A stretch of 64,000 nucleotides of DNA, from positions 48,653 through 112,652 of the forward strand of contig JACQEP010000007.1 of NCBI GenBank assembly GCA_016200485.1, in the 5' to 3' direction. Source of the stretch: Gammaproteobacteria bacterium (GTDB taxonomy: Bacteria; Pseudomonadota; Gammaproteobacteria; Tenderiales; Tenderiaceae). The translations under genes and the position numbers were made by a program. Positions 1,405 to 41,369 of the stretch are shown in pieces (the stretch's first letter is position 1; each line of letters begins with the position of its first letter). The notes below the pieces were generated by a model. It saw only the letters and a program-made list of their open reading frames with translations. It was not told where the DNA came from and made no database searches.

Positions 1405-3066
1405 ATGCTGCAAAATAACCCCGAACTAAAAGCAAAAATCGACCAGCTCTGGAATAAATTCTGGAGCGGCGGTATCTCCAATCCACTCACCGCCATCGAG
1501 CAGATTACCTACCTATTGTTCATGAAGCGGCTCGATGAAATCGACCAAAAAAAACAGGCCGATGCCGAATGGACAGGTGAGTTATATCTTTCCAAATTCG
1601 AAGGAACCTGGATGCCGCCGCAATATCGCGGGCAAAAGGATGAGAAAAAATACGCCATTGAAAAATACAAACTTCGCTGGGGTGAATTCAAAAACTATCA
1701 TGCCGAAGAGATGCTGGCTCATGTACAAACCAATGTCTTTCCTTTCCTGAAAGACCTTAACGGTGGCGAGTCAAAATTCACGCACCACATGAAAAATGCC
1801 GTCTTCATCATCCCCAAACCAGCGCTACTGGTAGAGGCAGTGAAGACCATCGACGAAATCTTCGGCATCATGGAGAAAGACTCCCAGGAAACCGGCTGCG
1901 CCTTTCAGGATATCCAGGGGGACGTCTATGAATTCCTGCTCTCTGAGATCGCCAGTGCCGGAAAAAATGGCCAATTCCGCACCCCGCGCCATATCATCAA
2001 GATGATGACTGAACTGGTGCAACCGCAACTGGGCCAGAACATCATCGACCCAGCCTGTGGTTCCGGCGGATTTTTATTGGGGGCCTATCAATACATCATC
2101 ACCCAATTAGCCATTAACGCCGGAGCTACCATCAAAATAACGCCCGACGAAGATGGCTTTAGGCGTACCTCCATCGCCGCAGGGAACACTGAAAATGCCC
2201 AAAGCATCCTGCAACGCACACTGCATGGCTATGACATCGACAGTACCATGGTACGCCTTGGTCTCATGAACCTGATGATGCACGGCATCAACGATCCGCA
2301 GATCGACTACAAAGACACCCTCAGCAAGAGCTTTAACGCCGAAGGCGAATATAACATTGTCATGGCCAACCCGCCCTTCACCGGCAGCATCGACAAGGGC
2401 GATATCAACGAACACTTGCAACTGGCCACCACCAAAACCGAACTGCTGTTTGTCGAGAACATCTACCGCCTGCTGAAAAAAGGCGGCACCGGCTGTGTCA
2501 TCGTGCTGCAAGGCGTGTTGTTCGGTTCCGGCAAGGCCTTCAAGGATCTACGCGAAACCCTGGTGACGCGCTGCGACCTCAAGGCCGTTATCACCATGCC
2601 CAGCGGCGTCTTCAAACCCTATGCCGGGGTCAGTACCGCGATTCTCCTCTTCACCAAGGTGTGGGGACCAAAAGAGAATGTCATCAAACCAGCCACCGAA
2701 CACGTCTGGTTCTACGAAATGGCCGCCGATGGTTATTCGCTGGACGACAAACGCACGAAGCTCGAAGGCCATGGCGACTTGCAGGACATCATCGCCAAAT
2801 ATCACGCACGTAATGCAGAGACAGACACCGACCGTACCCAGAAATATTTCATGGTGCCGCGCACTGACATCGAGGCCGAAGGTTATGACCTGAGCTTAAG
2901 TCGTTACAAGGAAGATGTATTTGAAGAGGTGGAGTACGAAGCCCCGGCGGTAATACTGGATAAGTTGCTCAAGGCGGAAGTGGGTAATGCCAGTGACAAG
3001 GAGCTGACCAAGGTACAGAGTGGCATTGTGCGCGAGTTGTTGGAGTTACGGGAGATGATTGGATGA
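1405..3066 (+). CDS. hsdM: Type I restriction-modification system, DNA methyltransferase subunit M (N6-adenine).
   Basis: HsdM N-terminal signature (LWNKFWSGGISNPLTAIEQITYLLFMKRLD), GQFRTPRHII, AdoMet motif I (DPACGSGGFL) and catalytic motif IV (NPPF). Stop overlaps the hsdS start (ATGA). Confidence 0.93.
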   Translation: MLQNNPELKAKIDQLWNKFWSGGISNPLTAIEQITYLLFMKRLDEIDQKKQADAEWTGELYLSKFEGTWMPPQYRGQKDEKKYAIEKYKLRWGEFKNYHAEEMLAHVQTNVFPFLKDLNGGESKFTHHMKNAVFIIPKPALLVEAVKTIDEIFGIMEKDSQETGCAFQDIQGDVYEFLLSEIASAGKNGQFRTPRHIIKMMTELVQPQLGQNIIDPACGSGGFLLGAYQYIITQLAINAGATIKITPDEDGFRRTSIAAGNTENAQSILQRTLHGYDIDSTMVRLGLMNLMMHGINDPQIDYKDTLSKSFNAEGEYNIVMANPPFTGSIDKGDINEHLQLATTKTELLFVENIYRLLKKGGTGCVIVLQGVLFGSGKAFKDLRETLVTRCDLKAVITMPSGVFKPYAGVSTAILLFTKVWGPKENVIKPATEHVWFYEMAADGYSLDDKRTKLEGHGDLQDIIAKYHARNAETDTDRTQKYFMVPRTDIEAEGYDLSLSRYKEDVFEEVEYEAPAVILDKLLKAEVGNASDKELTKVQSGIVRELLELREMIG

Positions 3067-4643
3067 GAACCGTTGCTCTCGGTGAAATTTGCAAAATTGT
3101 ATCGGGCTCAACCCCTAAAAGGAATAAACCAGAATATTGGGGAGGAGAAATCCCATGGGTTACGCCTAAAGAACTTAGCAAGATGGGATCTCCATATTTG
3201 GAAGATTCCATGGAAAAAATTACTGAACTTGGCTTCAAGTCATGTTCAACAACAATGTTGCCACCTAGGTCATTGCTGCTTAGCTCTAGAGCTCCTATTG
3301 GTTTACTGGCTATAAACAAAAAGAGTGTTTGCACGAATCAAGGTTTCAAAAGCTTGGTGCCATCAGAAGAGGCTCATGTTGAATATCTCTACTACTTCTT
3401 GAAAAACAATATTGGGGCATTACAAGCAAAGGGTAACGGCGCAACTTTTAAAGAATTATCAAGGTCTTCTGTAGAAGAGTTCAAAATCCGCCTCCCACCA
3501 CTTGACGACCAAATCCGCATTGCCCATCTGCTCGGCAAAGTGGAAGGGCTGATCGCCCAGCGCAAACAACACCTGCAACAACTCGACGACCTGCTCAAAA
3601 GCGTCTTTCTGGAGATGTTTGGCGATCCGGTGCGGAATGAGAAGGGGTGGGACATTCAACCTTGCCAAAAAGCCGTATTGGATATTTCTTCAGGCACAAG
3701 TTACGGCGGTGAAGACAGGGCGTTTGTAGGTTCTGACGAAGTTGGAGTGCTGAAGATAAGTGCAGTAACAAAAGGCACATTTGATCCAGCAGAGTTTAAG
3801 GTTGTTAATCCAGCGCAGATAACGAAGACACTTCGCTTTGTTAAGCGTGGCGATTTTCTGTTTAGTCGTGCAAATACGGTCGAGCTTGTTGCTGCATGCT
3901 GCGTTGTTCCACAGGACTACGCACGGTTATTTCTGCCCGATAAGTTATGGGTTTTGACTCTCAATGCTGAGTTAGTAAATTCGCAATTCTTCAATCGCTT
4001 GCTGAAGAATGAACGCTTTCGAGATGTCGTAAGAAGCCTGGCGAGCGGCGGCCACGATTCGATGCTGAATATTTCGATGAAGAAATTTATGACTCTCGAT
4101 ATTCCATGCCCGCCGATCAATCTCCAAAATCAATTCGCCGCAATCGTTGAAAAGATCGAAGGTATCAAATCCCACTACCAACAAAGCCTCACAGAACTAG
4201 AAAACCTCTATGGTGCATTAAGCCAAAAGGCCTTCAAAGGGGAGCTAGATTTGTCGCGTGCCCCTCTGTTAGTGAAGCTGGATGTCGCCGACAACCTAAC
4301 AATGCAACTGGAAGAGAAGGCGGGCCAGAGACATGTAACTACATCCATTGATGTGGTTGATGAGTACCCCATGTCAAACCCGGCTGCCCGCGAGAGGCTG
4401 CTTCGTAGGCTGTTTGATGAGTTTATACAAGACCTGAAAAAAGGTGCCGTCTTGTCGTTAGATTACTTCTGGCAATCAGTGCACTGGAAAGCCGTGGATT
4501 TTACGCACGAAGGGGAGCAGCCCTTTGGCTCGGCGGAGTATGAGCTGGTAAAACGCTGGTTGTTTGAATCTATTAAGTCGGGGCAGTTGGAACAGGCTTT
4601 TGATGAGGATAACAACAAAATTGCGCTGAAGTTGACAGGCTGA
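3063..4643 (+). CDS. hsdS: Type I RM specificity subunit S with two target-recognition domains plus an unusual ~128-aa C-terminal extension.
   Basis: TRD1 start (GEICKIVSGSTPKRNKPEYWGGEIPWVTPKEL). Central conserved region (LPPLDDQIRIAHLLGKVEGLIAQRKQHLQQLDDLLKSVFLEMFGDP). Second conserved region (NLQNQFAAIVEKIEGIKSHYQQSLTELENLYGALSQKAFKGEL). Coding continues ~128 aa past the usual HsdS end. TRD1 (3063-3480) is visibly AT-rich relative to the conserved spacers. Confidence 0.9.
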   Translation: MRTVALGEICKIVSGSTPKRNKPEYWGGEIPWVTPKELSKMGSPYLEDSMEKITELGFKSCSTTMLPPRSLLLSSRAPIGLLAINKKSVCTNQGFKSLVPSEEAHVEYLYYFLKNNIGALQAKGNGATFKELSRSSVEEFKIRLPPLDDQIRIAHLLGKVEGLIAQRKQHLQQLDDLLKSVFLEMFGDPVRNEKGWDIQPCQKAVLDISSGTSYGGEDRAFVGSDEVGVLKISAVTKGTFDPAEFKVVNPAQITKTLRFVKRGDFLFSRANTVELVAACCVVPQDYARLFLPDKLWVLTLNAELVNSQFFNRLLKNERFRDVVRSLASGGHDSMLNISMKKFMTLDIPCPPINLQNQFAAIVEKIEGIKSHYQQSLTELENLYGALSQKAFKGELDLSRAPLLVKLDVADNLTMQLEEKAGQRHVTTSIDVVDEYPMSNPAARERLLRRLFDEFIQDLKKGAVLSLDYFWQSVHWKAVDFTHEGEQPFGSAEYELVKRWLFESIKSGQLEQAFDEDNNKIALKLTG

Positions 4644-4648
4644 TCCTG

Positions 4649-6454
4649 GTGAAACTGTTGCGGCTAAAGATCACCGATCCTGCTGGTTTCCGCAGCCTGC
4701 AGCCGGGTTTCGAGTATCTCTTCCGTACGCCCTGGGAAATCGAAAGCGAGTTGCAGGAGGGGCAGGGCTTTGCGCCTTTTGTTTGTGCTGGACCAAATGG
4801 CAGCGGTAAGTCCAATCTGCTCGAAGTTCTGGCGGCAATATTTTTTAGCATTGAAAGCCGTTATTTGGATTTTTTACCAGATCAATTTGCCGAAAACGGT
4901 GAGGAAGTCGATGTATTTACATCGACAAATACCAAGCCCGACAGCTTCGAGCTGGAATACTTGATACCTCATGAGACTAATACCAGTCCCGTCGAATTTA
5001 AGGACGCTCATGTTGTCATATCAAAAACAGCGGGAAATAGTCCAGAATTGAATTGTTTAAATAAAAGCGAGTTCGGCATTGATGAAAAGGACTCTATTTC
5101 TCGACAACAAGCCAAAAAACTATTACCGCAGTATGTTCTTGGTTGCTCTTCGGGGGAAAACGAGATATTGAGCCTGCCTTTTTTCAAGCTGCGTTTTGTC
5201 CAGTTCGATGAATATTGGAATGCGCTAAGCAACCAATTGCCTTATCCAGGTAGACCAGAAACTAGGCTTGCCTATCTCGATAGTTCCTTTAGTCAGGCGA
5301 TTTTGCTCTGCAATCTGCTCTTTCAGGATGCAGAAACGCTAATGCCATTTCGCGAAGACGTTGGCGTGGAGGAACTGAGAGAGTTTCGTATTATTATCAA
5401 GCGCAGCATCGATGTTTCCGCTGAGATTGCTGCGAAATTTGAAAGAGGAGGTTTTGCTGAAGAGGGTTATGCGCAGGGTGGATATTATGCCAGTAATCCA
5501 GCGCTTACCTTGGACGGCGAGACCGGTCGTCACACCATTAATCTCATGCGCCTGCTTGAGGCCGGTAAAGATTCCGCAGAGAATTTTGATCCAATCGTTA
5601 CACGTCTAAAACGATGTGCGACTTGCTCCTTCGTGGATGAAACAACCGATACGCTTTATCTCGATTATTACGTCAATGAAGCAACTAAAGAGGCGTTCAA
5701 AGAAAATTTCGATTATTCGCCAATAGCATTGTTTCAGGCGTTTCAGGTCTTGCTCTCACTTAATCTCTATTCCGTTAGCGATACATTGAAAAGTAACCTG
5801 TACAAATCCGATAGCCTTTATGTTGGGGAAACCGTGCCAATCTTAGCCTCTGATGAGCGCATTATGAGATTTAAGCATTTTCTGTTAAAGAAAAGGGGCG
5901 CTGAAGAATCTGTGCTTCTTAAAAGCCTATCTGATGGCGAGCATCAGCTTTTGCACATCCTTGGCCTATGTTTGTTGTTCAGAAATACCAACAGTCTATT
6001 TCTGCTCGATGAGCCGGAAACCCACTTCAACCCGGACTGGCGTTCGAACTTTATCACGCGCCTGCGCCAGTGTTTTCGCGAGTCCACAGATACCCATGAA
6101 ATGCTTGTTACGACCCATGCCCCCTTCTTAATCTCCGACAGTAAACCAGAAAAGGTACTGGTCTTTAAGAAAGACGAGGGGCTCGGAACGGTCAACATCA
6201 GCAAACCGGATTACAACACCCTGGGCGCATCGATTAACAAGATCACTATGAATACCTTCGGCAAACGGGAAACTATTGGCGGCTATGCACAGTCGATTCT
6301 TGAGGGTCTGCGTAACCGGTTTGAAGGTGGCGAGGACAAGGATCAGCTCATTAATGAGATTAATCAGCAACTGGGCGACTCGGTTGAAAAGGTACTGCTG
6401 ATCAAGACTATCCTTGATGGCATGGAGGGTGAGGGTAATGCTGTTCCCGTATAA
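4649..6454 (+). CDS. ABC/SMC-type (AAA_21/AAA_15-like) ATPase, GTG start; candidate PtuA-like defence ATPase.
   Basis: Walker A (GPNGSGKSN), ABC signature-like (LSDGEHQLLHILG), Walker B/D-loop (LFLLDEPETHFNP) and H-loop (TTHAPF). GTG at 4649 lies 5 nt after the hsdS stop. An insertion between Walker A and the signature is typical of SMC/OLD/PtuA-like ATPases. Confidence 0.85.
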   Translation: MKLLRLKITDPAGFRSLQPGFEYLFRTPWEIESELQEGQGFAPFVCAGPNGSGKSNLLEVLAAIFFSIESRYLDFLPDQFAENGEEVDVFTSTNTKPDSFELEYLIPHETNTSPVEFKDAHVVISKTAGNSPELNCLNKSEFGIDEKDSISRQQAKKLLPQYVLGCSSGENEILSLPFFKLRFVQFDEYWNALSNQLPYPGRPETRLAYLDSSFSQAILLCNLLFQDAETLMPFREDVGVEELREFRIIIKRSIDVSAEIAAKFERGGFAEEGYAQGGYYASNPALTLDGETGRHTINLMRLLEAGKDSAENFDPIVTRLKRCATCSFVDETTDTLYLDYYVNEATKEAFKENFDYSPIALFQAFQVLLSLNLYSVSDTLKSNLYKSDSLYVGETVPILASDERIMRFKHFLLKKRGAEESVLLKSLSDGEHQLLHILGLCLLFRNTNSLFLLDEPETHFNPDWRSNFITRLRQCFRESTDTHEMLVTTHAPFLISDSKPEKVLVFKKDEGLGTVNISKPDYNTLGASINKITMNTFGKRETIGGYAQSILEGLRNRFEGGEDKDQLINEINQQLGDSVEKVLLIKTILDGMEGEGNAVPV

Positions 6455-7526
6455 ATACGTTCCGCACCAGATGGAGAAGATGCAAGAGTTTATCGACTTT
6501 ATCTTTTTTGAGGTGTGGTGCAAGGCTCTTTGGGAAGAGTACGATATTTCCCTCTTCAACAGTTGCCCAGAGCTGAAAACCATGATCGAAGGTCTGTACC
6601 ACACGGAGCCCAAGGGGGCAGATTTTTTCATAAAAGGCATTCAACAGATTTTCGATCAATTCAAAGTTCTGAATTATTTTGACTTGATGCGAATGCAAAG
6701 GTGGTACGAGGCAAATAACAATATAGAAGCAGCTTGTAGTCGAAAAGGAAAGGTTAATCCTGTTAGGTATGGCTCTTTAGGAAAAAGCTTCAATGAGCGG
6801 TACCAAGGGCTGAGTAAATCGCTTCACGCGTTCTTCAAGGACCTCTATTCACCAAACTTCTTAACGCTGAAAATTATTGAAAATGCGATTGGTAATATCG
6901 ACGACCATTATCAGCACTTCGTGCAGGTAAACACTGCGGGAAAATGCCCGTTTTGCGGAATCGGTGACGTGAAGGGCGTGCATCACACCAAGCGCGAAGC
7001 CTACGACCACTATCTCCCCAAGGCGCTCTACCCGTTTAGCTCAATCAATTTCCGCAACCTTGCTCCGGCCTGCCACGAGTGCAACAGCACCTATAAGCTC
7101 AGCAAGGACCCGGTGAATACTGCCGCAGGTCGTCGCAAGGCCTTTTACCCCTACGCTGATCCTGGTTCCAATATCGAAGTGACGATTGAACTCAGCAAGC
7201 CGGATGTTGATGATCTCACTCCTGCTGATATTCAGCTTGCCTTCGGTCCGTCGGAGTTAAATGAAGAAATTGAAACATGGAAAGATGTATACGGTATCGA
7301 GGAGCGGTATCGAGGAAAGTTGTTGGAAGGAGATGGAAAAGCGTGGCTCACAGAAATTTTGGACGAATGGAAATGGAAGGAAGTGAGCAATGGCAACGAA
7401 GGGCGCTCTCCCGCTGAATACCTTCGGGCCCTAAACCGTCACGTAACAAATTCACCATTTACAGGGGCTAATTTTCTCAAAAAGGCATTTCTTGAAGCAT
7501 GTGAAAGACAAAAATTGTTTGGCTAA
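6438..7526 (+). CDS. HNH-family endonuclease with an N-terminal ~170-aa domain of unknown function; candidate PtuB-like nuclease partner of the upstream ATPase (alternative start at 6414).
   Basis: HNH zinc/catalytic motif (CPFCG...HHTKREAYDHYLPK...FRNLAPACHECN). ATG at 6438 is preceded by GGAGGGTGAGGG and overlaps the ATPase stop at 6454. The N-terminal half is AT-rich. Confidence 0.8.
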   Translation: MLFPYKYVPHQMEKMQEFIDFIFFEVWCKALWEEYDISLFNSCPELKTMIEGLYHTEPKGADFFIKGIQQIFDQFKVLNYFDLMRMQRWYEANNNIEAACSRKGKVNPVRYGSLGKSFNERYQGLSKSLHAFFKDLYSPNFLTLKIIENAIGNIDDHYQHFVQVNTAGKCPFCGIGDVKGVHHTKREAYDHYLPKALYPFSSINFRNLAPACHECNSTYKLSKDPVNTAAGRRKAFYPYADPGSNIEVTIELSKPDVDDLTPADIQLAFGPSELNEEIETWKDVYGIEERYRGKLLEGDGKAWLTEILDEWKWKEVSNGNEGRSPAEYLRALNRHVTNSPFTGANFLKKAFLEACERQKLFG

Positions 7527-7842
7527 GAAATGATTAAATGAGCCGGGCTCGATTTGGTCATTTGCCCATTATGCAAAATCAAAGATCATTGGTGAAGAAT
7601 GGCGCTCAGACAATCAATTTTTGAGGTGATCAATTAGCCTGCTTAAGAGGCGCGTTGTGGGTAAGCGCCGTTATGAATTAGACTAAGCAAAGATTCAGAG
7701 ATTTTTCAGGGGTGGGATCAGGAAGACCCGTGCTACAAACCCTGACTCAGGTTTCGCGACCTATCGTCTCAAGGTCTATCCCATTAGGCTGGGGTCCACC
7801 CTTTTCAACTTTATAATTGTACAGCTGATGGGGGTGGGTCAG

Positions 7843-8115
7843 ATGAGCAGAGAAAATAGAATCCGTTGCAACAACATTGACTACCGGAAAGGCTTTGTCG
7901 AAGTTGAGTCTGGTGTCCACGTGGGTTGCATAACCTTAGAAACATGGAATGTTAAAATGGACCTGGATATTTCGAATCTAGACCTTTCGGATGAAGCCAT
8001 ACCAGAAGATAGCGTTACAGGAAACACAGAAATAGAAATGAGTGTTACTGAAGCCGAACAGCTAATTCAATTACTACAAAACGCAATTGATCTGGTCAGA
8101 AAAGGAAACGTATAG
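7843..8115 (+). CDS. Hypothetical small acidic protein (90 aa) in an AT-rich spacer.
   Basis: Open frame with a purine-rich stretch before the ATG. No recognisable motif. Confidence 0.25.
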   Translation: MSRENRIRCNNIDYRKGFVEVESGVHVGCITLETWNVKMDLDISNLDLSDEAIPEDSVTGNTEIEMSVTEAEQLIQLLQNAIDLVRKGNV

Positions 8116-8266
8116 CCACGTCCAGTGGATTGCTCTACGAAGTGGGTGCTTCAAATCCAGTGGTTCGGGCTTGATCTGATTGGCTCATATCATTTTATCG
8201 AATGGCCGGGTTCGGCCTAGAGCTGTAGTTCATAGTTTGTTAGCTGAACGTCTGCTTTAATGGTAA

Positions 8267-8928
8267 GTGCTTGTTATAGCATGCTTTGGATTTCCTTTGA
8301 TTGAATGGAGGATTCGGTGCGCAAACTTCATGCCTTCACTACATAGTGCCTGGAATAAAGGAAGACTAGTTGGGCAAAAGCTACCGCTGATGCAGCTATC
8401 TGAGAATATCAGGGATCTAGCGCTCTTCAATCTAGCCATCGATAGCACAAGCTTAGAGGTTGTGACTTAGTGAGGCTAATAGTCAGTGACCTCACACATG
8501 GCTCATCAATACTTAAGTGCGCAATGATCATGCAACAGAAAACCAAGCAACCTGTTCAGTTCGAGATTACAGATCAAATCAGGAAGGCCGTATTAGGCTT
8601 GATAGCCCTTCAGTATCTGAAATACAATGACACTCTCTTCCAAAGTCGTTTTCATCAATCACCTCATATCTATACCCGACAATCCGCCAGGATGGTCGGG
8701 TAATGGGTAAATGATATCGGACTAGACCCTGCGGATTACGGCGCTCACTCTATAAGAAGAACCAAGGTCTCGTTGATCTATCGGCAAACCCACAACTTGA
8801 GAGCATCCAGCTACTCCTCGGTCACACCAGATTGGAAAGTACTGTTAGGTATCTTTAGATATCTTGGTATAGAGGTAGATGATACCCTGGAAATATCAGA
8901 ACGGATGGAAATATAGCCATCCATCCCC
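8267..8928 (+). pseudogene. Tyrosine recombinase/phage-type integrase remnant (catalytic domain only), disrupted by frameshifts, an in-frame stop and a ~10-bp duplication.
   Basis: Integrase-like peptides in three frames: AWNKGRLVGQKLPLMQLSENIRDLALFNLAIDSTSLEVV | LIVSDLTHG...QPVQFEITDQIRKAVLGLIAL..FQSRFHQSPHIYTRQSARMVG stop(TAA 8701) | DIGLDPADYGAHSIRRTKVSLIYRQTHNLRA | IQLLLGHTRLESTVRYL stop | GIEVDDTLEISERMEI. The N-terminal arm/core-binding domains are absent. Confidence 0.8.
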
Positions 8929-8960
8929 CACACCTAGAAGCATTTTACACTTAAAAGTAA

Positions 8961-8988
8961 GGGAGCAGGACAGCCTGCTCCCTTTTAT
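8961..8988. terminator. Bidirectional rho-independent terminator (GGGAGCAGG-acagc-CTGCTCCC flanked by A-run/T-run).
   Basis: Perfect 9-bp stem with AAAAG upstream and TTTTAT downstream. Lies between the integrase remnant (+) and the 3' end of the minus-strand gene 8990..9334. Confidence 0.7.
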
Positions 8989-8989
8989 A

Positions 8990-9334
8990 CTATTCGCCAG
9001 TGTAATTGGCAGCGATGTAGTTGCCATCCGGAGTATAGAATAGATATAAAGTTTGCTTGGAGGCGTCACTCACTTTCTCATTCTTGAATATCACCACCCA
9101 TTCAGGGCCGTCTGCAAAGGTCTTTTGTTCTACCGAAGCGGGTTGAATTCCAGACCAGGACGCATCAATTTTTCCGGCCGTTGCCAGTTGTTCAACTTTT
9201 TGCATTGCCTTGCCAGAGGTCACATCCGCAGAAACGGGCCCATGAGAATGGCCGTGATCGTGCCCTGATCCTGCATATATTGGGTTTGCAAAAAACAAGA
9301 ACAGTGAAACTAGTGTAGAAATTAGATAACGCAT
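8990..9334 (-). CDS. Secreted His-rich putative metal-binding periplasmic protein (114 aa).
   Basis: Start MRYLISTLVSLFLFFANPIYA (signal peptide) preceded by GGAGGA. GSGHDHGHSHGP His-rich motif. The longer ORF-track start (9409) is upstream of the RBS and is rejected. Confidence 0.6.
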   Translation of the reverse strand: MRYLISTLVSLFLFFANPIYAGSGHDHGHSHGPVSADVTSGKAMQKVEQLATAGKIDASWSGIQPASVEQKTFADGPEWVVIFKNEKVSDASKQTLYLFYTPDGNYIAANYTGE

Positions 9335-9350
9335 AAATCCTCCAGGTCTA

Positions 9351-9485
9351 TTAATTGATGGTGTCATGTTGATTTGTTTGATCATGTGAGTGCCCATTAC
9401 CATGGGCATGGCCGTCTTCTGATGAGCATGCAGAAAATAGCGTTAAACTTGAACAGGTGAATATTATCAAAACTAACTTGTGCAT
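9351..9485 (-). CDS. 44-aa His-rich lipoprotein-like peptide (MHKLVLIIFTCSSLTLFSACSSEDGHAHGNGHSHDQTNQHDTIN), absent from the ORF track.
   Basis: GGAGGT RBS 6 nt upstream of the ATG. Lipobox-like LFSAC. Same GHxHGxGHSH motif as the downstream gene, and tandem with it. Confidence 0.45.
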   Translation of the reverse strand: MHKLVLIIFTCSSLTLFSACSSEDGHAHGNGHSHDQTNQHDTIN

Positions 9486-9501
9486 TATTTACCTCCTATC
9501 G

Positions 9502-10692
9502 TTAATCAATGCTTTCATGTCTTGCCTGGAGTTTTGGAGCTGGTTCGTTAATTACCTTATTTTTATCCACTAGCTGATATTCGCCATTTACTTTTAGCGA
9601 AATGGTGATAGGTGTGTGGGTGTTGTTTTTCCAATACCAACCATGTGTACCTGCAAATGTAGAGGTTAAAGAGCCGCTTGACTGGCTTTCCGTACTCTTG
9701 TGGAAGCTTTTGAAATAGCCGGTGGTATCGCCTGCGGGTTCACCATGAAAATCATAAAACAGTGGCTCGCCATCTGTTCGCCATGAATAGTTAAACGTCG
9801 CACCTTTGGCTAGAAAGAGTTTGTACTCCTTATCACCTCTGGCAGGTATCGTGACAGCGATGGAATCTTTCCACTCTGTAGACTCCATGCTTGCAAGGCC
9901 TCCTTGCACGGCAGTAGATTGCGCGGAGGCTTCTTTACTTGCGCCTAGCTCTTTATTGATGGTGTGCTCATAACCATGCATTTGCATGAAAAATAGGTAA
10001 ATTCCCATGGCTATCAAGGCATAGTTTGCAATCAGGCTGAACGCTTTGAAACCATGGGTTTTACGCCATGCCGCAATCAGCAATAACATCAGGAACAGCG
10101 CGCTGATTTGTCCCAGTTCGATGCCTATGTTGAACGAAATAATATTCAGTAACAGTCCGTCTTCGCTTAGCGGCAGTTCCTGCAAACGCGTGGATAAGCC
10201 AAAACCATGGATCAGCCCAAGCCCAATGATCATCAGCATCATGTTAGGTGGGTTAATACCAAGATATTTACGAAAGCCGTCAATGTTAGCGAAAGCGATA
10301 TAACACACACTGAGCGCAATCACTGCATCAATGAGGAAGTAGTTAAGCTGAATCGCGTTAAATGTGGCGAAAATCAGCGTGACACTGTGCCCCAGTGTAA
10401 ACGCGGTCACGTATTTGGCAATATCCCGAAAGGTGGTTAGGAAGAAGATGATCCCGAAGACAAACGCAAGATGGTCGTAGCCGGAAAGCATGTGTGTAGC
10501 GCCTAGCCACAAATACTGCACGTTACCACCGTCGATGATTGCCTGTTTTTCCGCTCCAGACATACCATGAGCAAAGGCAAGATTGGAAAACAATGCAAAC
10601 AGCACGAGCCCGGTGATTAGAATAAACAGATTTCGTTTGACTAACATGGCTTGATTATTCTGGGGTAATGAGATTGCTTTGCTGCTAATCAC
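9502..10692 (-). CDS. HupE/UreJ-family (Ni/Co) membrane transporter fused to a ~140-aa C-terminal soluble domain.
   Basis: HupE/UreJ signature HMLSGYDHLAFVFGIIFF. Multiple TM segments over ~250 aa, followed by a hydrophilic tail (KELGASKEASAQ...WKNNTHTPITISLKVNGEYQLV). Confidence 0.7.
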   Translation of the reverse strand: MISSKAISLPQNNQAMLVKRNLFILITGLVLFALFSNLAFAHGMSGAEKQAIIDGGNVQYLWLGATHMLSGYDHLAFVFGIIFFLTTFRDIAKYVTAFTLGHSVTLIFATFNAIQLNYFLIDAVIALSVCYIAFANIDGFRKYLGINPPNMMLMIIGLGLIHGFGLSTRLQELPLSEDGLLLNIISFNIGIELGQISALFLMLLLIAAWRKTHGFKAFSLIANYALIAMGIYLFFMQMHGYEHTINKELGASKEASAQSTAVQGGLASMESTEWKDSIAVTIPARGDKEYKLFLAKGATFNYSWRTDGEPLFYDFHGEPAGDTTGYFKSFHKSTESQSSGSLTSTFAGTHGWYWKNNTHTPITISLKVNGEYQLVDKNKVINEPAPKLQARHESID

Positions 10693-10997
10693 AGGCGACC
10701 TCCTTTTTCGGCAGCTGTTACCCAGTAAACGCCATGTCCCGTGAGATTGGCTTGCGCCTCACTAAGCTTTGCCAATACAGCATTTACATCAGTATCCTCA
10801 AGTAAAATATCTGTCCGTATACGTGGGGCATAGCCAACCACGTTATCGTGTGCAGTTATAAAAGGGTCGCTTTCCACTTCTACACCATGACCTTCGACGT
10901 GGCTAAAGGTAAAGCCTGAGACCTGATCAATAGTGCGTAATAAATCAGCCAGTTGTTGCTGAACGTTCGTATGAACAATAAGCGTTAATACTTTCAT
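10689..10997 (-). CDS. Small P-II-fold/DUF3240-like protein of the kind found beside cation-efflux genes.
   Basis: 102 aa. MKVLTLIVHTNVQQQLADLL...GHGV pattern. 4-nt overlap with the HupE/UreJ gene. The family assignment is from memory. Confidence 0.5.
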   Translation of the reverse strand: MKVLTLIVHTNVQQQLADLLRTIDQVSGFTFSHVEGHGVEVESDPFITAHDNVVGYAPRIRTDILLEDTDVNAVLAKLSEAQANLTGHGVYWVTAAEKGGRL

Positions 10998-11141
10998 GCG
11001 TATTCCTCTGCAATGAATCGAATCTTTAGGGTTGCCAGTGCACCAGAAATCGGCTGCATTACTGGCTTAAATTTATGTCGCATGGATACGGTCGGCTCGA
11101 GTCTAAGTCGAGCGAGCATCAATACATTGATAGAGAAACGC

Positions 11142-11558
11142 TTAAAGTGGTGGTGCGCGAAGCGGTGGGATTAGATGAAATCGACGGGGAAGGCTAACGT
11201 TGCCACGATTTATAGGAAATTTATTTCGATATAGCCCAGGTACGGGCAGGAACAGCACGATGCCTATTAAGGCTGCCATCAGTAGATTGCTAGCTACCTG
11301 TTTTAAGCAGTCCGGGCATGCATCAATCACTGTTGTTGTTTCATCATGGTGATCCTGATGGGAGCTGTCTAAAGAAAGGTGAGCCCCACCAATGTGAGAG
11401 TGTCCATTGATATTGTCGATTGAGTGATGACCTTGATGCGAGTCATGATCAAAGCTGTGGACATGTAGAGTTACGCCTTGAGCTGACAGCATTAGCAATG
11501 AAAGCAATACTGTCCACGCAATCAATATTCTCTTATCTATTTTACGAAAAAAATCCAT
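11142..11558 (-). CDS. His-rich secreted/membrane-anchored putative metal-binding protein (DUF2946-like?).
   Basis: N-terminal signal/TM. HVHSFDHDSHQGHHSIDNINGHSHIGGAH...HQDHHDE. CPDC motif. C-terminal hydrophobic segment. Confidence 0.5.
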   Translation of the reverse strand: MDFFRKIDKRILIAWTVLLSLLMLSAQGVTLHVHSFDHDSHQGHHSIDNINGHSHIGGAHLSLDSSHQDHHDETTTVIDACPDCLKQVASNLLMAALIGIVLFLPVPGLYRNKFPINRGNVSLPRRFHLIPPLRAPPL

Positions 11559-11665
11559 CGTGGCAGTCTAGCAACTTAAGTGTCCAAGTGTAAATCGGAT
11601 ATTATTTGATCCAATTCGACAATAAGGAAAAATTCTTTATTTTGACAAGCCTTATTCATGTGTAC

Positions 11666-11941
11666 TTATTTGAGATAGGAGCGTAACACTGCCACAACCT
11701 GCTCCAGATCCTCATTGCGCTGCTGAGGCGTCACACCCTCAGCGCCTAGATGCTCCCTGAGATGCCCCTCCAGCACTTCAGTCATGAGGCCATTTACCGC
11801 ACCACGAATCGCCGCAATCTGCTGAAGAATCGCCACACATTCTTTATCTTGTTCCAGGGCCTTTTCTAAGGCCTCTGTCTGCCCTTTGATGCGGCGTAAT
11901 CGGGTCAGCAGTTGTTTCTTACCTTCAATCGTATGCGACAT
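11666..11941 (-). CDS. RcnR/FrmR/CsoR-family metal-sensing transcriptional repressor (DmeR-like), 91 aa.
   Basis: N-terminus MSHTIEGKKQLLTRLRRIKGQTEALEKAL matches the RcnR/FrmR family. Divergent to a CDF transporter. The longer ORF-track start is rejected. Confidence 0.8.
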   Translation of the reverse strand: MSHTIEGKKQLLTRLRRIKGQTEALEKALEQDKECVAILQQIAAIRGAVNGLMTEVLEGHLREHLGAEGVTPQQRNEDLEQVVAVLRSYLK

Positions 11942-11962
11942 GGTTTCTCTTTCTAAGAGAGG

Positions 11963-11981
11963 TATACTGAGGTATAGTATA
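11963..11981. promoter_or_regulatory. Candidate RcnR/DmeR operator: inverted repeat TATACT-N7-AGTATA in the divergent intergenic region.
   Basis: tatactgaggtatagtata contains TACT-N7-AGTA, resembling the E. coli RcnR site consensus TACT-G6-N-AGTA. An adjacent direct repeat GAGGTATA x2 is present. Confidence 0.5.
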
Positions 11982-12011
11982 TGCCAATATGAATCAAGTA
12001 GACAAATTTCG

Positions 12012-12974
12012 ATGATCCCCCCCAAAACAGACAACGACTGGAATCACTCTCACGTATTTGATGAGGGCAATCCACTGGCGGAAAGAAATACCCGCTGGGC
12101 GGTGATTCTGACGGCAATCATGATGGTGGTCGAAATCGCTGGCGGCTGGGTATTTAACTCAATGGCATTATTGGCCGACGGTTGGCACATGAGTTCACAC
12201 GCTCTGGCACTGGGTCTCTCTGTGGCAGCCTATGTCGCCGCCCGGCGCTTTGCCCATGATGGCCGATTTGCGTTTGGCACCTGGAAAATTGAGGTTCTGG
12301 GCAGCTATACCAGCGCAATCCTGCTCATTGGTGTTGCCGGACTGATGCTTTACCAGTCGGTAGAACGACTCATGGCGCCGTCCCCTATCCACTACGATCA
12401 AGCGATTTTCGTTGCCATCCTAGGCTTATTGGTCAATCTCGCCTGTGCTTGGCTACTCAATGACGGACATGCGCATCATGATCATGACCTTGATCACGGA
12501 CACCATCATGACCTGAACCTGCGCGCTGCCTATCTCCACGTACTTGCCGATGCAGCAACCTCCGTCCTGGCTATTTTGGCGTTGATCGGTGGTAAATTAT
12601 GGGGAGCTAGCTGGCTTGATCCCGCAATGGGCATCGTTGGTGCGGTGTTGGTTACGGTATGGGCTTATGGGCTGTTACACGACGCAGGGCGAGTGCTGCT
12701 CGATGCAGAAATGAATGCCCCCGTGGTCAATGAAATTCGTGACGTGATCGACGCCTGCCCCTCCGATGCACATATCTGCGACCTTCATGTGTGGCGTGTC
12801 GGCAAGGGTAAATACGCCTGCATCCTATCGCTTATCGTTAATGCCGATTCTAACGATGATGCGGAATATTACCAAAAGCAGTTGGGCATTCACGAGGAGC
12901 TTGTTCATATCACTGTGGAAATAAAGAACCAACAAAAACCTGTTGATCTTGAAGCTGAAATTGCACCAGCTTAA
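12012..12974 (+). CDS. Cation diffusion facilitator (CDF) family Co/Ni/Zn efflux transporter (DmeF/CzcD-like).
   Basis: MIPPKTDNDWNHSHVF...WAVILTAIMMVVEIAGG. His-rich cytoplasmic loop (HAHHDHDLDHGHHHDLN) followed by LRAAYLHVLADAATSV. Start chosen at 12012 rather than the ORF-track 11886. Confidence 0.85.
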   Translation: MIPPKTDNDWNHSHVFDEGNPLAERNTRWAVILTAIMMVVEIAGGWVFNSMALLADGWHMSSHALALGLSVAAYVAARRFAHDGRFAFGTWKIEVLGSYTSAILLIGVAGLMLYQSVERLMAPSPIHYDQAIFVAILGLLVNLACAWLLNDGHAHHDHDLDHGHHHDLNLRAAYLHVLADAATSVLAILALIGGKLWGASWLDPAMGIVGAVLVTVWAYGLLHDAGRVLLDAEMNAPVVNEIRDVIDACPSDAHICDLHVWRVGKGKYACILSLIVNADSNDDAEYYQKQLGIHEELVHITVEIKNQQKPVDLEAEIAPA

Positions 12975-13203
12975 ACACATAAGTGGCGCAATATAGCTTG
13001 GACAAGAGCCCGAAGAGGAATAAGGGAATGTCTGCTATCGCGATTCCTGCCGTTCGCTCCATAGTAGACATTCGCTAACTCCACTTTCAAAGGCAGCAAA
13101 GGGTCGTTCTGAGTCATTAAAAATTCAAGCGAATCCGACGTTCTCTGTTATATCAAGCACCATATCTTCCTGTCACCAAATGCGGATACCTGGGGAAGGG
13201 TGA

Positions 13204-13263
13204 ATTACGCAAAATTACCTGTGTCATGCGTAATTATGCAAATCGCGCGTAATTATGCGTAAT
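13204..13263. repeat. Iteron-like array of the 7-mer GCGTAAT (one inverted ATTACGC copy plus three direct copies, two of them as GCGTAATTATGC).
   Basis: Direct reading: gaATTACGCaaaattacctgtgtcatGCGTAATTATGCaaatcgcGCGTAATTATGCGTAATctgg. Confidence 0.6.
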
Positions 13264-13352
13264 CTGGCGGGGCAACTTATTGGCGTAGGGACTATTTAGG
13301 GGCGTGATCTCCACGGTCAACGAAGAGACAATGTATCCTGAGATCGCTTTTA

Positions 13353-13568
13353 TCAAGCCACAAACCGCACCTTATGCCTCGCCAACGCAATCGTTACCGT
13401 CGCCCCGACATTAAATTCCAGATAATCGCCTTCAATCCCGTCGCTGAAAATCACACCATTGCCCGTCATCTGTGAGTGAATAATGAGTGGCAGTTCGTTG
13501 GTGACCACGCCGAAGATGTGTGAGGTCTGCGTGGGCTTGCTCGGAAACGGTTCCCGTACCGCAAACAT
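13353..13568 (-). CDS. Hypothetical small protein, possibly a gene fragment.
   Basis: Open frame only. No motif recognised. Start uncertain. Confidence 0.2.
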   Translation of the reverse strand: MFAVREPFPSKPTQTSHIFGVVTNELPLIIHSQMTGNGVIFSDGIEGDYLEFNVGATVTIALARHKVRFVA

Positions 13569-13641
13569 GTACCCTTATGGAAGAGGGGTTAGCGGTGACG
13601 CCCCCTCGCCCATAAGCCGACGAGGGGTAATGTCAGCGATT

Positions 13642-13881
13642 TTAGTGTTTCCGATCCATTGGAGGACTTGGATCTTTACCGTAGCTGTCGCTGTCGCGTA
13701 TCTGGCCATTTTGGCGATGAATGACAACTTCTGCGTGCTCCCGTTTAGCCTGATCACGGGCGCGATCAATAGCTTCGCGCTGCGTATCGTGCTTTGACCC
13801 AGCCCGGTCGGCCCCTTCTTTTTTGGTCGCCCATCCGCCGTCTTTATGCGGTACAACATGTATGTCACGTTTCTTGCTCAT
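13642..13881 (-). CDS. DUF2188 domain-containing small protein.
   Basis: HVVPHKDGGWATKKEGADRAGSKHDTQREAIDRARDQAKREHAEVVIHRQNGQIRDSDSYGKDPSPP matches the DUF2188 pattern, recognised from memory. Confidence 0.7.
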   Translation of the reverse strand: MSKKRDIHVVPHKDGGWATKKEGADRAGSKHDTQREAIDRARDQAKREHAEVVIHRQNGQIRDSDSYGKDPSPPMDRKH

Positions 13882-13898
13882 ATCAGACCTCTTTTCAT

Positions 13899-14162
13899 TT
13901 AGCAGTTAGCCAAGTCATCCAGATTGTTGCGGGACGTGTTGTCCTTGTCCGTGCGCAGATATTTCCCCCTTGGTCCGTTAACCACGCGGATCGGAGTCTT
14001 TGTGCCATCGCTCCATGGGACATGGTACTGATGTGCCCTGGTTTCAATATCCCGGATCGCATCCGCCTTGTCACGGGGAGACCAAAATTCGCCGTGATTA
14101 CACAGACCGGTAATGTCGCCATCGCGATCCTTCCTGCTTCGGGTTACAGCTCTTATTGCCAT
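13899..14162 (-). CDS. DUF3892 domain-containing small protein.
   Basis: ITGLCNHGEFWSPRDKADAIRDIETRAHQYHV...RVVNGPRGKYLRTDKDNTSRNNLDDL matches the DUF3892 pattern, recognised from memory. Confidence 0.65.
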   Translation of the reverse strand: MAIRAVTRSRKDRDGDITGLCNHGEFWSPRDKADAIRDIETRAHQYHVPWSDGTKTPIRVVNGPRGKYLRTDKDNTSRNNLDDLANC

Positions 14163-14305
14163 GTGAGCACCTCATTTCAGTTGATTAAAAATAAATGTAA
14201 TGTAAAATACTACGATTCCGTATAGACCATGGGTCTAAAAAACGCCTAGCGCGTATATACGAAGGCGTATTTTATTAATATACTCTAACGTATAGAGGTT
14301 GTGCA

Positions 14306-14641
14306 ATGGTAAATGATGATGTTTTTCCGCAAAGACTCGTGGCTGCCCGCAAGAAGCGGGAACTCAGCCAGGATGATCTGGCCCAGAGGTCAGGGCTACA
14401 ACCCGCTGCGGTATCTCACTTTGAAACGGGAGCACGCAAGCCCTCTTTTGATAATCTGCGTCGGTTGGCAGATGCACTCAACGTAACCGCCGATTACTTA
14501 CTCGGCCGTACAGACGATCCCGAAGGGTTTGCCGAAGCGGACGTGGCTTTTCGGCACGGCTTTGAAAAGCTATCTTCAGACCAGAGGGAGATAGCTCTGG
14601 ACTTTATTCAGGTGTTGGCCAAGAGAAACAAGAAAGAATAG
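14306..14641 (+). CDS. XRE-family helix-turn-helix transcriptional regulator.
   Basis: LVAARKKRELSQDDLAQRSGLQPAAVSHFETGARKPSFDNLRRLADALNVTADYLLG is a Cro/C1-type HTH. Confidence 0.85.
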   Translation: MVNDDVFPQRLVAARKKRELSQDDLAQRSGLQPAAVSHFETGARKPSFDNLRRLADALNVTADYLLGRTDDPEGFAEADVAFRHGFEKLSSDQREIALDFIQVLAKRNKKE

Positions 14642-14653
14642 GAGCCACCTGAG

Positions 14654-15511
14654 ATGGATCCCTTTGCCACGAGAGAAGCTGAGCGGCTCCTGAAGGAGTG
14701 GGGAGTTACATCTCTTCCGGTCAATCCGGTTGCCATTGCTGTGCAGCATGACATTGTTTGTCAGGCCATGCCATCGCAGAATGGCGGGGTGTCGGGAATG
14801 TTGATAAAAAACAAGCGGGCGTTTGGTATTCTTTACGCCACCCATATAGAAAACGAGGGCTTCCAGCGTTTCAGTGTCGCGCACGAGCTGGGGCATTATT
14901 TTTTACCCGGCCATCCCGAAGCGGTGTTCGCAGGCGGCGTTATCCACGAATCACGGGCTGGATTTGTCTCTGACGATACATATGAAAGTGAGGCTGATCA
15001 TTTTGCCAGCGGCTTGCTTATGCCGAATTTTTTGTTCGATCCCGTATTAGATCGTGCCGGGGAAGGGATGGAAGTGGTTAAAACGCTGAAGCAGCTCTGT
15101 GGTACGTCTCTGGTGGCCACGGCTATCCGTTATGCTCAGAGAACGCCGGCGCCCGCCGCGATTGTAGTGAGCATAGGTGATAAGGTGGATTACTGCTTCA
15201 TGTCGGATGATCTGAAGGAATATCCGGGACTGGCCTGGCTCAAAAAAGGGATGGGCGTTCCGCGCGGCACAAAAACGCACACTTTCAACAGAGATGTGGA
15301 TAATGTGCGTCTTGCCAGAGAAGATGCAGATTCCATCAGCTTGGCGACATGGTTTGGTAGTAGAATAAAAGGTGAGCTGTATGAAGAAGTCATCGGTCTT
15401 GGCAGATATGGCAAGACATTGACTGTACTTTCCGCATCCGATCTGCCTGATCTTGAGGAGATCGAAGAGGATGAAGAACTTGAGGATTCATGGGCGATTC
15501 GCTTCAGATAA
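14654..15511 (+). CDS. ImmA/IrrE-family (DUF955) zinc metallopeptidase with an acidic C-terminal tail.
   Basis: HEXXH motif in FSVAHELGHYFLPGH. Immediately downstream of the XRE gene with a 12-nt gap. Tail DLPDLEEIEEDEELEDS. Confidence 0.8.
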   Translation: MDPFATREAERLLKEWGVTSLPVNPVAIAVQHDIVCQAMPSQNGGVSGMLIKNKRAFGILYATHIENEGFQRFSVAHELGHYFLPGHPEAVFAGGVIHESRAGFVSDDTYESEADHFASGLLMPNFLFDPVLDRAGEGMEVVKTLKQLCGTSLVATAIRYAQRTPAPAAIVVSIGDKVDYCFMSDDLKEYPGLAWLKKGMGVPRGTKTHTFNRDVDNVRLAREDADSISLATWFGSRIKGELYEEVIGLGRYGKTLTVLSASDLPDLEEIEEDEELEDSWAIRFR

Positions 15512-15640
15512 TGCCGATTTTTTGAATGTGGTAAATAAGTTAATTCCATTGATGCTGGTAATGCGGACAAGCTATTGTTTAATGCGTATGGAGACGTGGA
15601 AGCCGCACAAAATAACTTCATTCATATGATAAGGATCTCT

Positions 15641-15673
15641 AATTACAAACTTTATATCTTAATTACAAACTTT
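15641..15673. repeat. 13-bp direct repeat AATTACAAACTTT x2 spaced 20 bp apart in an AT-rich convergent intergenic region.
   Basis: Direct reading: ctctAATTACAAACTTTatatcttAATTACAAACTTTtttatc. Confidence 0.6.
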
Positions 15674-15742
15674 TTTATCAATGTACAAATGAAATATCGC
15701 TATTCTCTCTGATACAAGCGGCGACTAATTTCCTGAGCTGTA

Positions 15743-17314: not shown

Positions 17315-17529
17315 AAATACCTCGTATCGCTGAATGTAATAGTTATAATTAAATGCTAAAGCGCAATCATGTATCGGTAATGGTGCATATAACTTTACCC
17401 TGATAAGTCTATTTAAAAGGGAGGCTTTCTATATGATTTCTAAAATAATTTTGAGCGCACTTATGACTACGCTTGGTTTTAAGTGTAAATTCATATTAGA
17501 ATTTATAACGTTAATTTCGCCGGTGTTTC

Positions 17530-41292: not shown

Positions 41293-41369
41293 GCGCCCGT
41301 AGCTCAGCTGGATAGAGCGCAGCCCTCCGGAGGCTGAGGTCAGGGGTTCGAATCCCTTCGGGCGCGCCA
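41293..41369 (+). tRNA. tRNA-Arg (anticodon CCG).
   Basis: GCGCCCGTAGCTCAGCTGGATAGAGCGCAGCCCTCCGGAGGCTGAGGTCAGGGGTTCGAATCCCTTCGGGCGCGCCA is near-identical to E. coli tRNA-Arg(CCG). Cloverleaf intact. CCA encoded. Confidence 0.93.

Follow-up and report, generated by a model that had tools for sequence, protein, structure and literature searches.

The tyrosine recombinase superfamily is recognized by a PF00589 match above the gathering score and by the catalytic residues R, HxxR, H/W and Y, and several recombinase systems are close enough in form to the locus described here to serve as points of comparison. P4-type integrases are proteins of about 400 residues that carry an N-terminal arm-binding domain (DUF4102) and a SAM-like core-binding domain and are typically encoded beside a tRNA or tmRNA gene. 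Xer recombinases, of about 300 residues, combine a core-binding domain with the catalytic domain and are single-copy housekeeping enzymes. FimB and FimE are smaller, at about 200 residues in a one-domain layout, and operate invertible switches in which inverted repeats enclose a promoter element adjacent to the recombinase gene. Hin belongs to the serine recombinases, and hin lies inside the H segment bounded by hixL and hixR. The named protein most like the gene discussed below is RMET_RS30660 (WP_008652562.1) of Cupriavidus metallidurans plasmid pMOL30, a solitary recombinase that adjoins metal-resistance genes (copM/copK and the cop cluster). We found no description or characterization in the literature of the small recombinase family to which it belongs, RMET_RS30660 included, and no report of recombination activity for any family member.

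The window, by which we mean the whole 64,000-nucleotide stretch that was analysed (contig JACQEP010000007.1 of the gammaproteobacterial assembly GCA_016200485.1), contains a decayed copy of such a gene. Positions 8212 to 8916 are a dead full-length copy of a tyrosine recombinase gene of about 206 codons together with its own upstream block, and in this respect an ordinary pseudogene left by mobile DNA. It adds one more member to the tyrosine recombinase superfamily, and the subfamily concerned has by nature a single domain and a solitary gene. We think it probable that the segment is the inert relic of one complete and compact recombination module, made up of the solitary recombinase gene and a 107-nucleotide upstream block.

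Identity of the decayed gene

Six-frame translation of positions 8130 to 8960 gave integrase-like peptides on the plus strand only. Five peptide segments, distributed over three frames between 8330 and 8916, together encode a tyrosine-recombinase catalytic domain, and are as follows.

8330-8446, plus strand: coding segment 1, MPSLHSAWNKGRLVGQKLPLMQLSENIRDLALFNLAIDS, corresponding to residues ~7-50 of the intact protein and holding a 33-nucleotide in-frame deletion
8449-8700, plus strand: coding segment 2, KLRGCDLV...RQSARMVG, with the codon for catalytic Arg I at 8455-8457
8704-8804, plus strand: coding segment 3, WVNDIGLDPADYGAHSIRRTKVSLIYRQTHNLR, with the HxxR motif (His 8746, Arg 8755)
8805-8855, plus strand: coding segment 4, IQLLLGHTRLESTVRYL, with LLGHT (His 8823) and RY (Tyr 8850)
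8857-8916, plus strand: coding segment 5, RYLGIEVDDTLEISERMEI followed by the original stop codon TAG at 8914-8916, forming the C-terminus

The frame-corrected translation matches Pfam PF00589 with 57.2 bits (cutoff 27.1; E=2e-15) over profile positions 11-166 of 172, and a search of 5.8 billion proteins with the joined translation returned at least 8000 significant matches, the best with E=3e-88. These scores place the match far beyond chance. The catalytic codons are all kept, namely Arg 8455, the HxxR pair His 8746 and Arg 8755, His 8823, and Tyr 8850 (duplicated at 8860); the residues are invariant among homologs, and in the relic their codons are spread over the three frames. Both hallmarks of the superfamily are thus present, while the uninterrupted start-to-stop frame expected of a functional gene is not. 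A preliminary description of this DNA, made from the sequence, had proposed a decayed tyrosine-recombinase gene in three frames and had named the failure of integrase profiles to align across the segments as the finding that would speak against it; on both points the alignment bears the proposal out.

The nearest intact homologs are 206-208 residues long and 78-81% identical to the relic, whose reconstruction spans 98-99% of their length. As the match runs from end to end, the relic is a full-length copy save for an internal deletion of 11 codons. The N-terminal domains had been described as missing, but there were none to lose: the intact homologs contain PF00589 only, and the DNA upstream of the start is homologous to non-coding sequence in the relatives. 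The feature also begins earlier than position 8267, where its start had been placed, with a conserved upstream block that opens at about 8212.

Domain architecture and known recombinase classes

With PF00589 as the sole Pfam domain of the intact homologs, the family appears to consist of a short N-terminal tail and an Xer-like catalytic domain, core-binding and arm-binding domains being absent. Among solved structures only XerD (1a0p) gives a significant match, and it is confined to the catalytic domain: residues 20-193 of the intact homolog P0003 pair with XerD 105-281. Every match to an NCBIfam curated model falls below the cutoff of its family. The best of them are to the Xer models (XerC, XerD, XerA and XerS), at 36-64 bits against cutoffs of 220-335, and the matches cover no more than the C-terminal half of each model; P0003 reaches 64 bits with XerA and 53 bits with XerC. 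The two groups have the R..K..HxxR..H..Y catalytic set in common, but the relic family, at 206 residues, lacks the core-binding domain, and its gene is neither single-copy nor housekeeping: its accessory surroundings vary, it is also carried by plasmids, and a replicon may have several copies of it. Membership of the Xer group was rejected on the scores below the equivalog cutoffs and the lack of the two-domain architecture.

In size and one-domain layout the family is closer to FimB and FimE, whose models it matches weakly along their full length (residues 39-191 against profile positions 23-173 of 198). Distant members of the family also have inverted repeats around a short segment, as invertible switches do. 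The scores with the FimB/FimE models NF007370 and NF007371, however, are 19-26 bits against cutoffs of 221-222, far too low for membership, and where the repeats occur they surround the recombinase gene and not an adjacent promoter element; the clade to which the window's copy belongs has no such repeat pair. An integron integrase was rejected as well, with 17-27 bits against 265 for TIGR02249 and 14-27 bits against 265-435 for the integron models overall. Upstream of the recombinase, the relatives have housekeeping or accessory genes in the same direction and no cassettes.

The preliminary description had suggested a P4-type integrase. Relic and P4-type enzymes have the PF00589 catalytic fold in common and both serve as markers of acquired DNA, but the homologs of the relic are 206 residues long, contain PF00589 only, and have a tRNA gene nearby at only 1 of 90 loci. 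The P4 assignment was rejected, since no P4, DUF4102 or SAM-like domain is found and the DNA where such domains would be encoded is conserved non-coding sequence; the best curated models are Xer catalytic domains, far below cutoff. Finally, RMET_RS30660 is 68% identical to P0003 and of equal length. It differs from the relic in being intact and on a betaproteobacterial plasmid, and in that its CGGCCA-containing site lies downstream of the gene and not upstream.

The upstream block and a possible junction

The 107 nucleotides from 8212 to 8318, upstream of the ancestral start, are conserved in the closest intact relatives. The features recognized in this block are the following.

8212-8217, plus strand: TCGGCC, the left edge of the conserved block and the point at which the flanks of the relatives diverge (alignment to relatives)
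8225-8252, plus strand: inverted repeat GTAGTTCA-N12-TGAACGTC (one match in the window against 0.01 expected)
8245-8270, plus strand: TGAACGTCTGCTTTAATGGTAAGTGC, with the place and look of the left inverted-repeat site of distant members (by-eye comparison)
8307-8312, plus strand: GGAGGA, the ancestral ribosome-binding site (6-8 nucleotides before the ATG in all close relatives)

The same inverted repeat is present at loci L001 and L007, and a variant of it (GTAATTC...GAATGAC) at L178. TGAACGTCTGCTTTAATGGTAAGTGC resembles, by eye and not by a statistical measure, the upstream repeats of the distant loci L041, L044, L058 and L064.

Eight relatives (L001, L003, L006, L007, L172, L173, L176 and L178) have the block, and in each it starts with (T)CGGCC, in eight flanking contexts. 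From position -108/-107 relative to the ATG onward, L001, L003 and L006 are 99.9-100% identical across the gene and at least 8.7 kb downstream of it. Before that position they have three unrelated contexts, one with sulfur-transport and rhodanese genes, one with fabA-fabB-PALP, and a third. The identical block edge is found at L007, L172, L173, L176 and L178 in five further contexts. Because unrelated DNA is joined at the TCGGCC edge in these relatives, the edge is a recurrent breakpoint, and the simplest reading is that it would be a site for site-specific recombination. By analogy, a recombination junction at about 8212 in the window is plausible.

On this basis the following history can be proposed. 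The module would have comprised the recombinase gene and an upstream block with the ribosome-binding site, the inverted repeat, and TCGGCC at its outer edge. The intact enzyme would presumably cleave and religate DNA at a short site beside its own gene, as it is there that unrelated DNA is found joined. An event of this kind at about 8212 is the most likely way in which the window's copy arrived or was rearranged, and it would have put the copy between a type I restriction-modification (R-M)/Septu-like locus and a DUF2946-DUF3240-HupE-DUF6488 metal operon. TCGGCC may then be the crossover site and site-specific recombination the mode of entry, and one side of the junction, if either, may be cargo.

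The TCGGCC block is present in a single copy in the window, and searches of the window for att-type repeats, terminal repeats or a second copy of the 8211-8232 block gave nothing above chance. In intact close relatives a hairpin and a GCAG...ATAGACAAAGCAG motif follow the stop codon; neither is present downstream of 8916, which leaves no landmark for the unit's right end. L001 and L003 have at least 8.7 kb in common downstream of the gene, and a unit of 0.8 kb accounts for this no better than a larger element or a rearrangement at one end would. To the left of the block, 7527-8211 has no similarity to any compared locus, and neither this stretch nor its 90-residue ORF has a Pfam or PADLOC match. 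A search for structured RNA across 7000-9600 gave an Rfam match at chance level only (E=0.43).

Genomic surroundings and the island question

The genes around the relic are listed below, with the strand where it was recorded.

155-1402: Fic-like/HATPase_c_4 protein
1405-3066: HsdM
3063-4643: HsdS
4649-6454: restriction-system-associated ATPase, matching Septu PtuA (E=2e-48)
6414-7526: PtuB/PDC-M01B-like HNH protein
8990-9409, minus strand: DUF6488
9502-10692, minus strand: HupE/UreJ_2
10689-10997, minus strand: DUF3240
11142-11558, minus strand: DUF2946
11666-12034, minus strand: CsoR/RcnR-type repressor
11886-12974, plus strand: cation-diffusion facilitator
14654-15511: CapP-like peptidase

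The relic lies, as had been proposed, between a defence locus on the left and a metal-related operon on the right. The defence locus is a type I R-M system with an embedded Septu-like PtuA/PtuB pair. On a cyanobacterial plasmid a homologous ATPase pair closes an hsdR-hsdM-...-ATPase-HNH array, and given this order the absence of hsdR beyond 7526 does not point to a deletion. The AT-richness noted for the flanks is also seen, GC being 0.44 at 7527-8916 against 0.53 for 17.5-64 kb. Over a longer range, GC is 0.469 for 3063-17500 and 0.532 for 17500-64000, a compositional departure of the kind used to recognize genomic islands, and one that is found on both sides of the relic. The relic thus lies inside a composite accessory region, at the seam of two blocks and not at an outer border.

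Alternatively, the relic may have served a conventional genomic island, now immobilized, as its integrase, placed at the left end and with the metal-homeostasis islet at 8990-12974 and beyond as the cargo. Several observations agree with this. L001, L003, L006 and L172 differ in their upstream DNA but agree in the gene and at least 8.7 kb beyond it, as would be expected if an integrase occupied the left end of a larger element. The gene of L007 lies next to a tRNA gene, the homolog on pMOL30 adjoins the cop cluster, and GC is low on the right-hand side (0.467). The island of the pMOL30 homolog has been listed as containing a tyrosine-based site-specific recombinase (PMC7019866).

Against the island account stands the behavior of the metal genes themselves. 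A scan with the HupE-like protein found the DUF2946-DUF3240-HupE-DUF6488 module at 80 metagenomic loci with 63-76% identity, yet a homolog of the relic's recombinase was near it at 0 of the 80, and none had further synteny with the window beyond the four-gene module. Conversely, family loci rarely carry those metal genes, which occur near them sporadically and with no general linkage. A search of the whole window for a direct repeat of the left-end block found none, and the R-M/Septu side is as poor in GC as the metal side, which argues for a relic within a composite region. The metal operon as cargo of the recombinase is therefore not supported, and we regard the island account as unlikely. 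A junction of acquired pieces at this point, read by analogy with the relatives, is a plausible hypothesis.

The relic had further been called an old, immobilized integration scar on the ground that no tRNA gene is adjacent. The observation itself stands, as the only tRNA gene in the window is Arg-CCG at 41293. The deduction does not: a tRNA gene lies within 1 kb at 1 of 90 family loci, the exception being L007, whose gene starts 195 nucleotides downstream of tRNA-Thr, and since absence is the norm of the family it says nothing of the age of the relic.

Other occurrences of the window's genes are few. Clustered at 90%, each window protein that was checked stood alone or with one or a few other members, and an exact-protein look-up returned only a contig (L010) that is 100% identical.

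Decay of the gene and the remaining alternatives

Lesions were mapped by DNA alignment to the intact genes of L001, L007 and L011. They number seven, as listed here.

8319-8321, plus strand: loss of the start codon, the ancestral ATG now being GCG
After 8329, plus strand: 1-nucleotide deletion
After 8390, plus strand: 33-nucleotide in-frame deletion that removes KLQEIWAIRIR
8446-8447, plus strand: 2-nucleotide insertion (CA), the first frameshift
8701-8703, plus strand: nonsense codon TAA, CAA in the intact genes
After 8804, plus strand: 1-nucleotide deletion
8846-8855 and 8856-8865, plus strand: 10-nucleotide tandem duplication, TAGGTATCTT followed by TAGATATCTT, the third frameshift

The preliminary description had named three of these. 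The in-frame TAA at 8701 was placed exactly and is a CAA to TAA change; the 1-nucleotide deletion is real but follows 8804 and is not near 8795, and the duplication of about 10 bp occupies 8846-8865 and not the neighborhood of 8868. The +2 insertion, the 33-nucleotide deletion, the loss of the ATG and the -1 change after 8329 had been missed. The frameshifts are of +2, -1 and +10, plus a -1 near the start; because the N-terminus is variable in the family, the lesion in the start region is less certain than the others. The second copy of the duplication has since gained a substitution.

The decay extends beyond these lesions. Alignment with 11 intact homologs gives 104 positions at which all of these agree; the relic departs from them at 11, and the same count made for each intact homolog as a leave-one-out control gave 0-4. 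This difference indicates that the gene has been free of selection for some time. Function would have been lost through the one nonsense codon, the three or four frameshifts, the 11-codon deletion, the loss of the start and the changes at invariant residues. The relic is now inert and does nothing.

It could be argued that the gene is intact in the organism and that the lesions are sequencing or assembly errors, as the window comes from a metagenome-assembled genome and the sole second assembly of the stretch (L010; Logan SRR12113411), although 100% identical, may derive from the same reads. Errors of this kind are a very improbable source of seven independent lesions that include a 33-nucleotide deletion, a 10-nucleotide duplication that has since mutated and a nonsense substitution, and of 11 replacements at invariant residues, all in a gene whose neighbors are intact.

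Small tyrosine recombinases beside hsdS are a known arrangement, and hsdS invertons are known from pneumococcus and Mycoplasma. That the relic, 0.7 kb downstream of the hsdM-hsdS locus, was the invertase of a phase-variable type I R-M system that shuffled hsdS target-recognition domains is nevertheless largely refuted, and the least probable of the accounts, given that the window has one hsdS only and no partial copy of it, that no inverted repeats of at least 15 nucleotides tie hsdS to anything meaningful, that the PtuA/PtuB pair and a 0.7-kb orphan stretch lie between hsdS and the relic, and that HsdM is a neighbor in a single case among the family loci.

A family of compact recombinases

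Relatives of the relic are found in beta- and gammaproteobacteria and beyond, and a genome scan confirmed at least 556 among the 600 stretches listed. Besides C. metallidurans CH34, strains that carry an intact copy include Pseudomonas nitroreducens TX1, Stutzerimonas stutzeri A563/77 and Methylobacter tundripaludum SV96. No recurrent partner gene was found across 85 family loci. Viral contigs rarely carry the gene, with about 35 full-length matches in 2.9 million contigs. Many contigs break about 100-160 nucleotides upstream of the gene or just past it. Pairs of close homologs in unrelated genomes have in common only the gene and about 30-90 nucleotides on each side.

Many homologs at 64-71% identity have CGGCCA 30-90 nucleotides past the stop codon, as the middle part of the site GGTCGCTAAC-CGGCCA-GAAGCGGCC, which recurs as its reverse complement about 50-100 nucleotides before the start. 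The gene in such distant members is bracketed by inverted repeats of 22-30 nucleotides. An inverted match of at least 17 of 22 positions between upstream and downstream DNA was found at 17 of 71 loci, compared with 1 of 71 in direct orientation and 5 of 71 in mismatched pairings. The inner arms of the repeats differ among subclades and agree between the left and right ends of each copy, and this co-variation argues for a function. The distant members would therefore by their repeat patterns appear to form a unit of about 0.8 kb, with the recombinase gene set between inverted repeats that look like core sites. In the window's own clade, ungapped and gapped searches for an upstream/downstream inverted repeat gave nothing above shuffled controls, so the architecture of the distant members may not apply to it.

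The nearest analogy for these units is the H segment. A recombinase gene of about 0.6 kb between inverted sites of about 26 nucleotides, in a unit of about 0.8-1 kb, is common to Hin and to those 17 of the 71 distant loci. Hin, however, is of the serine type and its segment inverts, while the relic family is known from sequence with no inversion observed, and the window's clade has no repeat pair. More tentatively than for the relic itself, one might propose that the relic belongs to a very widespread class of self-contained minimal tyrosine-recombinase modules of about 0.8 kb, each with a catalytic-domain-only enzyme of 206 residues and its own Xer/dif-like site or sites, either an analogue of the Hin segment or a new element of the size of an insertion sequence. 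Such a class would have co-varying inverted repeats of 22-30 nucleotides in many beta- and gammaproteobacteria and a single upstream joining site in the window's clade; we hold this to be possible, but doubtful. The compact architecture at the level of the family, as suggested by patterns in the DNA, would be the only aspect that is mildly novel. If the class exists and is a mobile element of this size, it would reshuffle accessory DNA, defence and metal-resistance loci included.

In their behavior the intact relatives are compact units, each with one or more putative recombination sites of its own close by, and identical copies abut different flanking DNA, joined at one nucleotide. For the source genome itself the relic is of little consequence. 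It can be read as a neutral fossil, which suggests that the stretch of 3-17.5 kb, with the type I R-M/Septu-like pair, the metal operon and the CapP-like regulator, was assembled from acquired pieces. For annotation, a recombinase match of about 200 residues that lacks an N-terminal domain need be neither a truncated phage integrase nor the mark of an island border, since this length is normal in a huge family that has no association with tRNA genes. The gene of this family is carried by many plasmids, with pMOL30 beside its cop genes among them, and on plasmid pPUV-7 the end of an ISCfr1-like IS1182 element adjoins the recombinase gene.

Boundaries of the recombinase block

Among the contigs that carry intact close relatives of the relic, the dead tyrosine recombinase gene of the window, near-identity spans the recombinase and reaches at least 8.7 kb downstream of it (L001:7893, L003:6916 and L006:193, and also L172). 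Upstream, the same copies carry three or four unrelated sequences, all joined at the same nucleotide, which lies 107-108 nt 5' of the start codon at (A/T)TCGGCCAACAG. The flank immediately left of the joint reads GGCAGRA in L003, L006, and L172. This heptamer is similar to a motif found 3' of the recombinase's own stop codon in the same clade.

Many of the more distant members of the family are enclosed by repeats. In many beta- and gammaproteobacterial homologs, inverted repeats of 22-30 nt bracket the 0.62-kb recombinase gene, as seen in the genome loci L022, L035, L033, L044, L036, L023, L041, L065, and others; one such pair is TGTCCGCTTCTGGCCGGTTAGCGAC ... GTCGCTAACCGGCCAGAAGCGG. The inner repeat arms vary from subclade to subclade, yet within each copy the arm at one end matches the arm at the other. 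An inverted repeat score of at least 17/22 was reached in 17 of 71 family loci, compared with 1 of 71 when the upstream and downstream sides were compared in direct orientation. On the P. aeruginosa plasmid pPUV-7 (L180, NZ_MT732185.1), an intact family member has an ISCfr1-like IS1182 element ending approximately 55 nt 5' of its start codon, inside or next to the place where related copies have their upstream repeat.

Genes on either side of the relic

The flanking genes that are discussed here are as follows, with those marked L010 called on a second, 100% identical assembly of this stretch.

155-1402, Fic-like/HATPase_c_4 protein, ahead of hsdM
1405-3066, HsdM, type I R-M
3063-4643, HsdS, type I R-M
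4649-6454, PtuA-type ATPase of a Septu-like pair (PADLOC E=2e-48; NCBI name "restriction system-associated AAA family ATPase")
6414-7526, PtuB/PDC-M01B-like HNH protein of the Septu-like pair
7843-8115, acidic ORF of 90 residues (L010)
14306-14641 (equivalent position), small HTH_3 gene ahead of the CapP-like peptidase (L010)
14654-15511, CapP-like M78 peptidase (PADLOC capP E=5e-61)

The left side is occupied by a type I R-M locus (1405-7526) in which the Septu-like pair is embedded, and the 64-kb window contains no hsdR. An orphan stretch of 0.7 kb (7527-8211) separates this locus from the recombinase block; it has no Pfam or PADLOC match and resembles nothing among the loci retrieved for comparison.

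To the right, within 8990-12974, lies a four-gene module, DUF2946-DUF3240(P-II-like)-HupE/UreJ_2-DUF6488, which presumably functions in Ni/Co or Cu handling. The module is also carried by 80 marine and sediment metagenome contigs (L092-L171; HupE protein identity 63-76%), and no flanks are conserved across the window and these contigs. A CsoR/RcnR-type repressor and a cation-diffusion facilitator adjoin it in the window and in a few other loci. Further right, the HTH_3 gene and CapP-like peptidase (14306-15511) resemble a regulator pair of the CapH/CapP type; the pair has no obvious CBASS or other effector as a neighbour, and an MCP gene comes next.

The GC content is 0.469 over 3063-17500 versus 0.532 over 17500-64000; the entire left quarter of the window, beyond the flanks of the relic alone, looks horizontally acquired.
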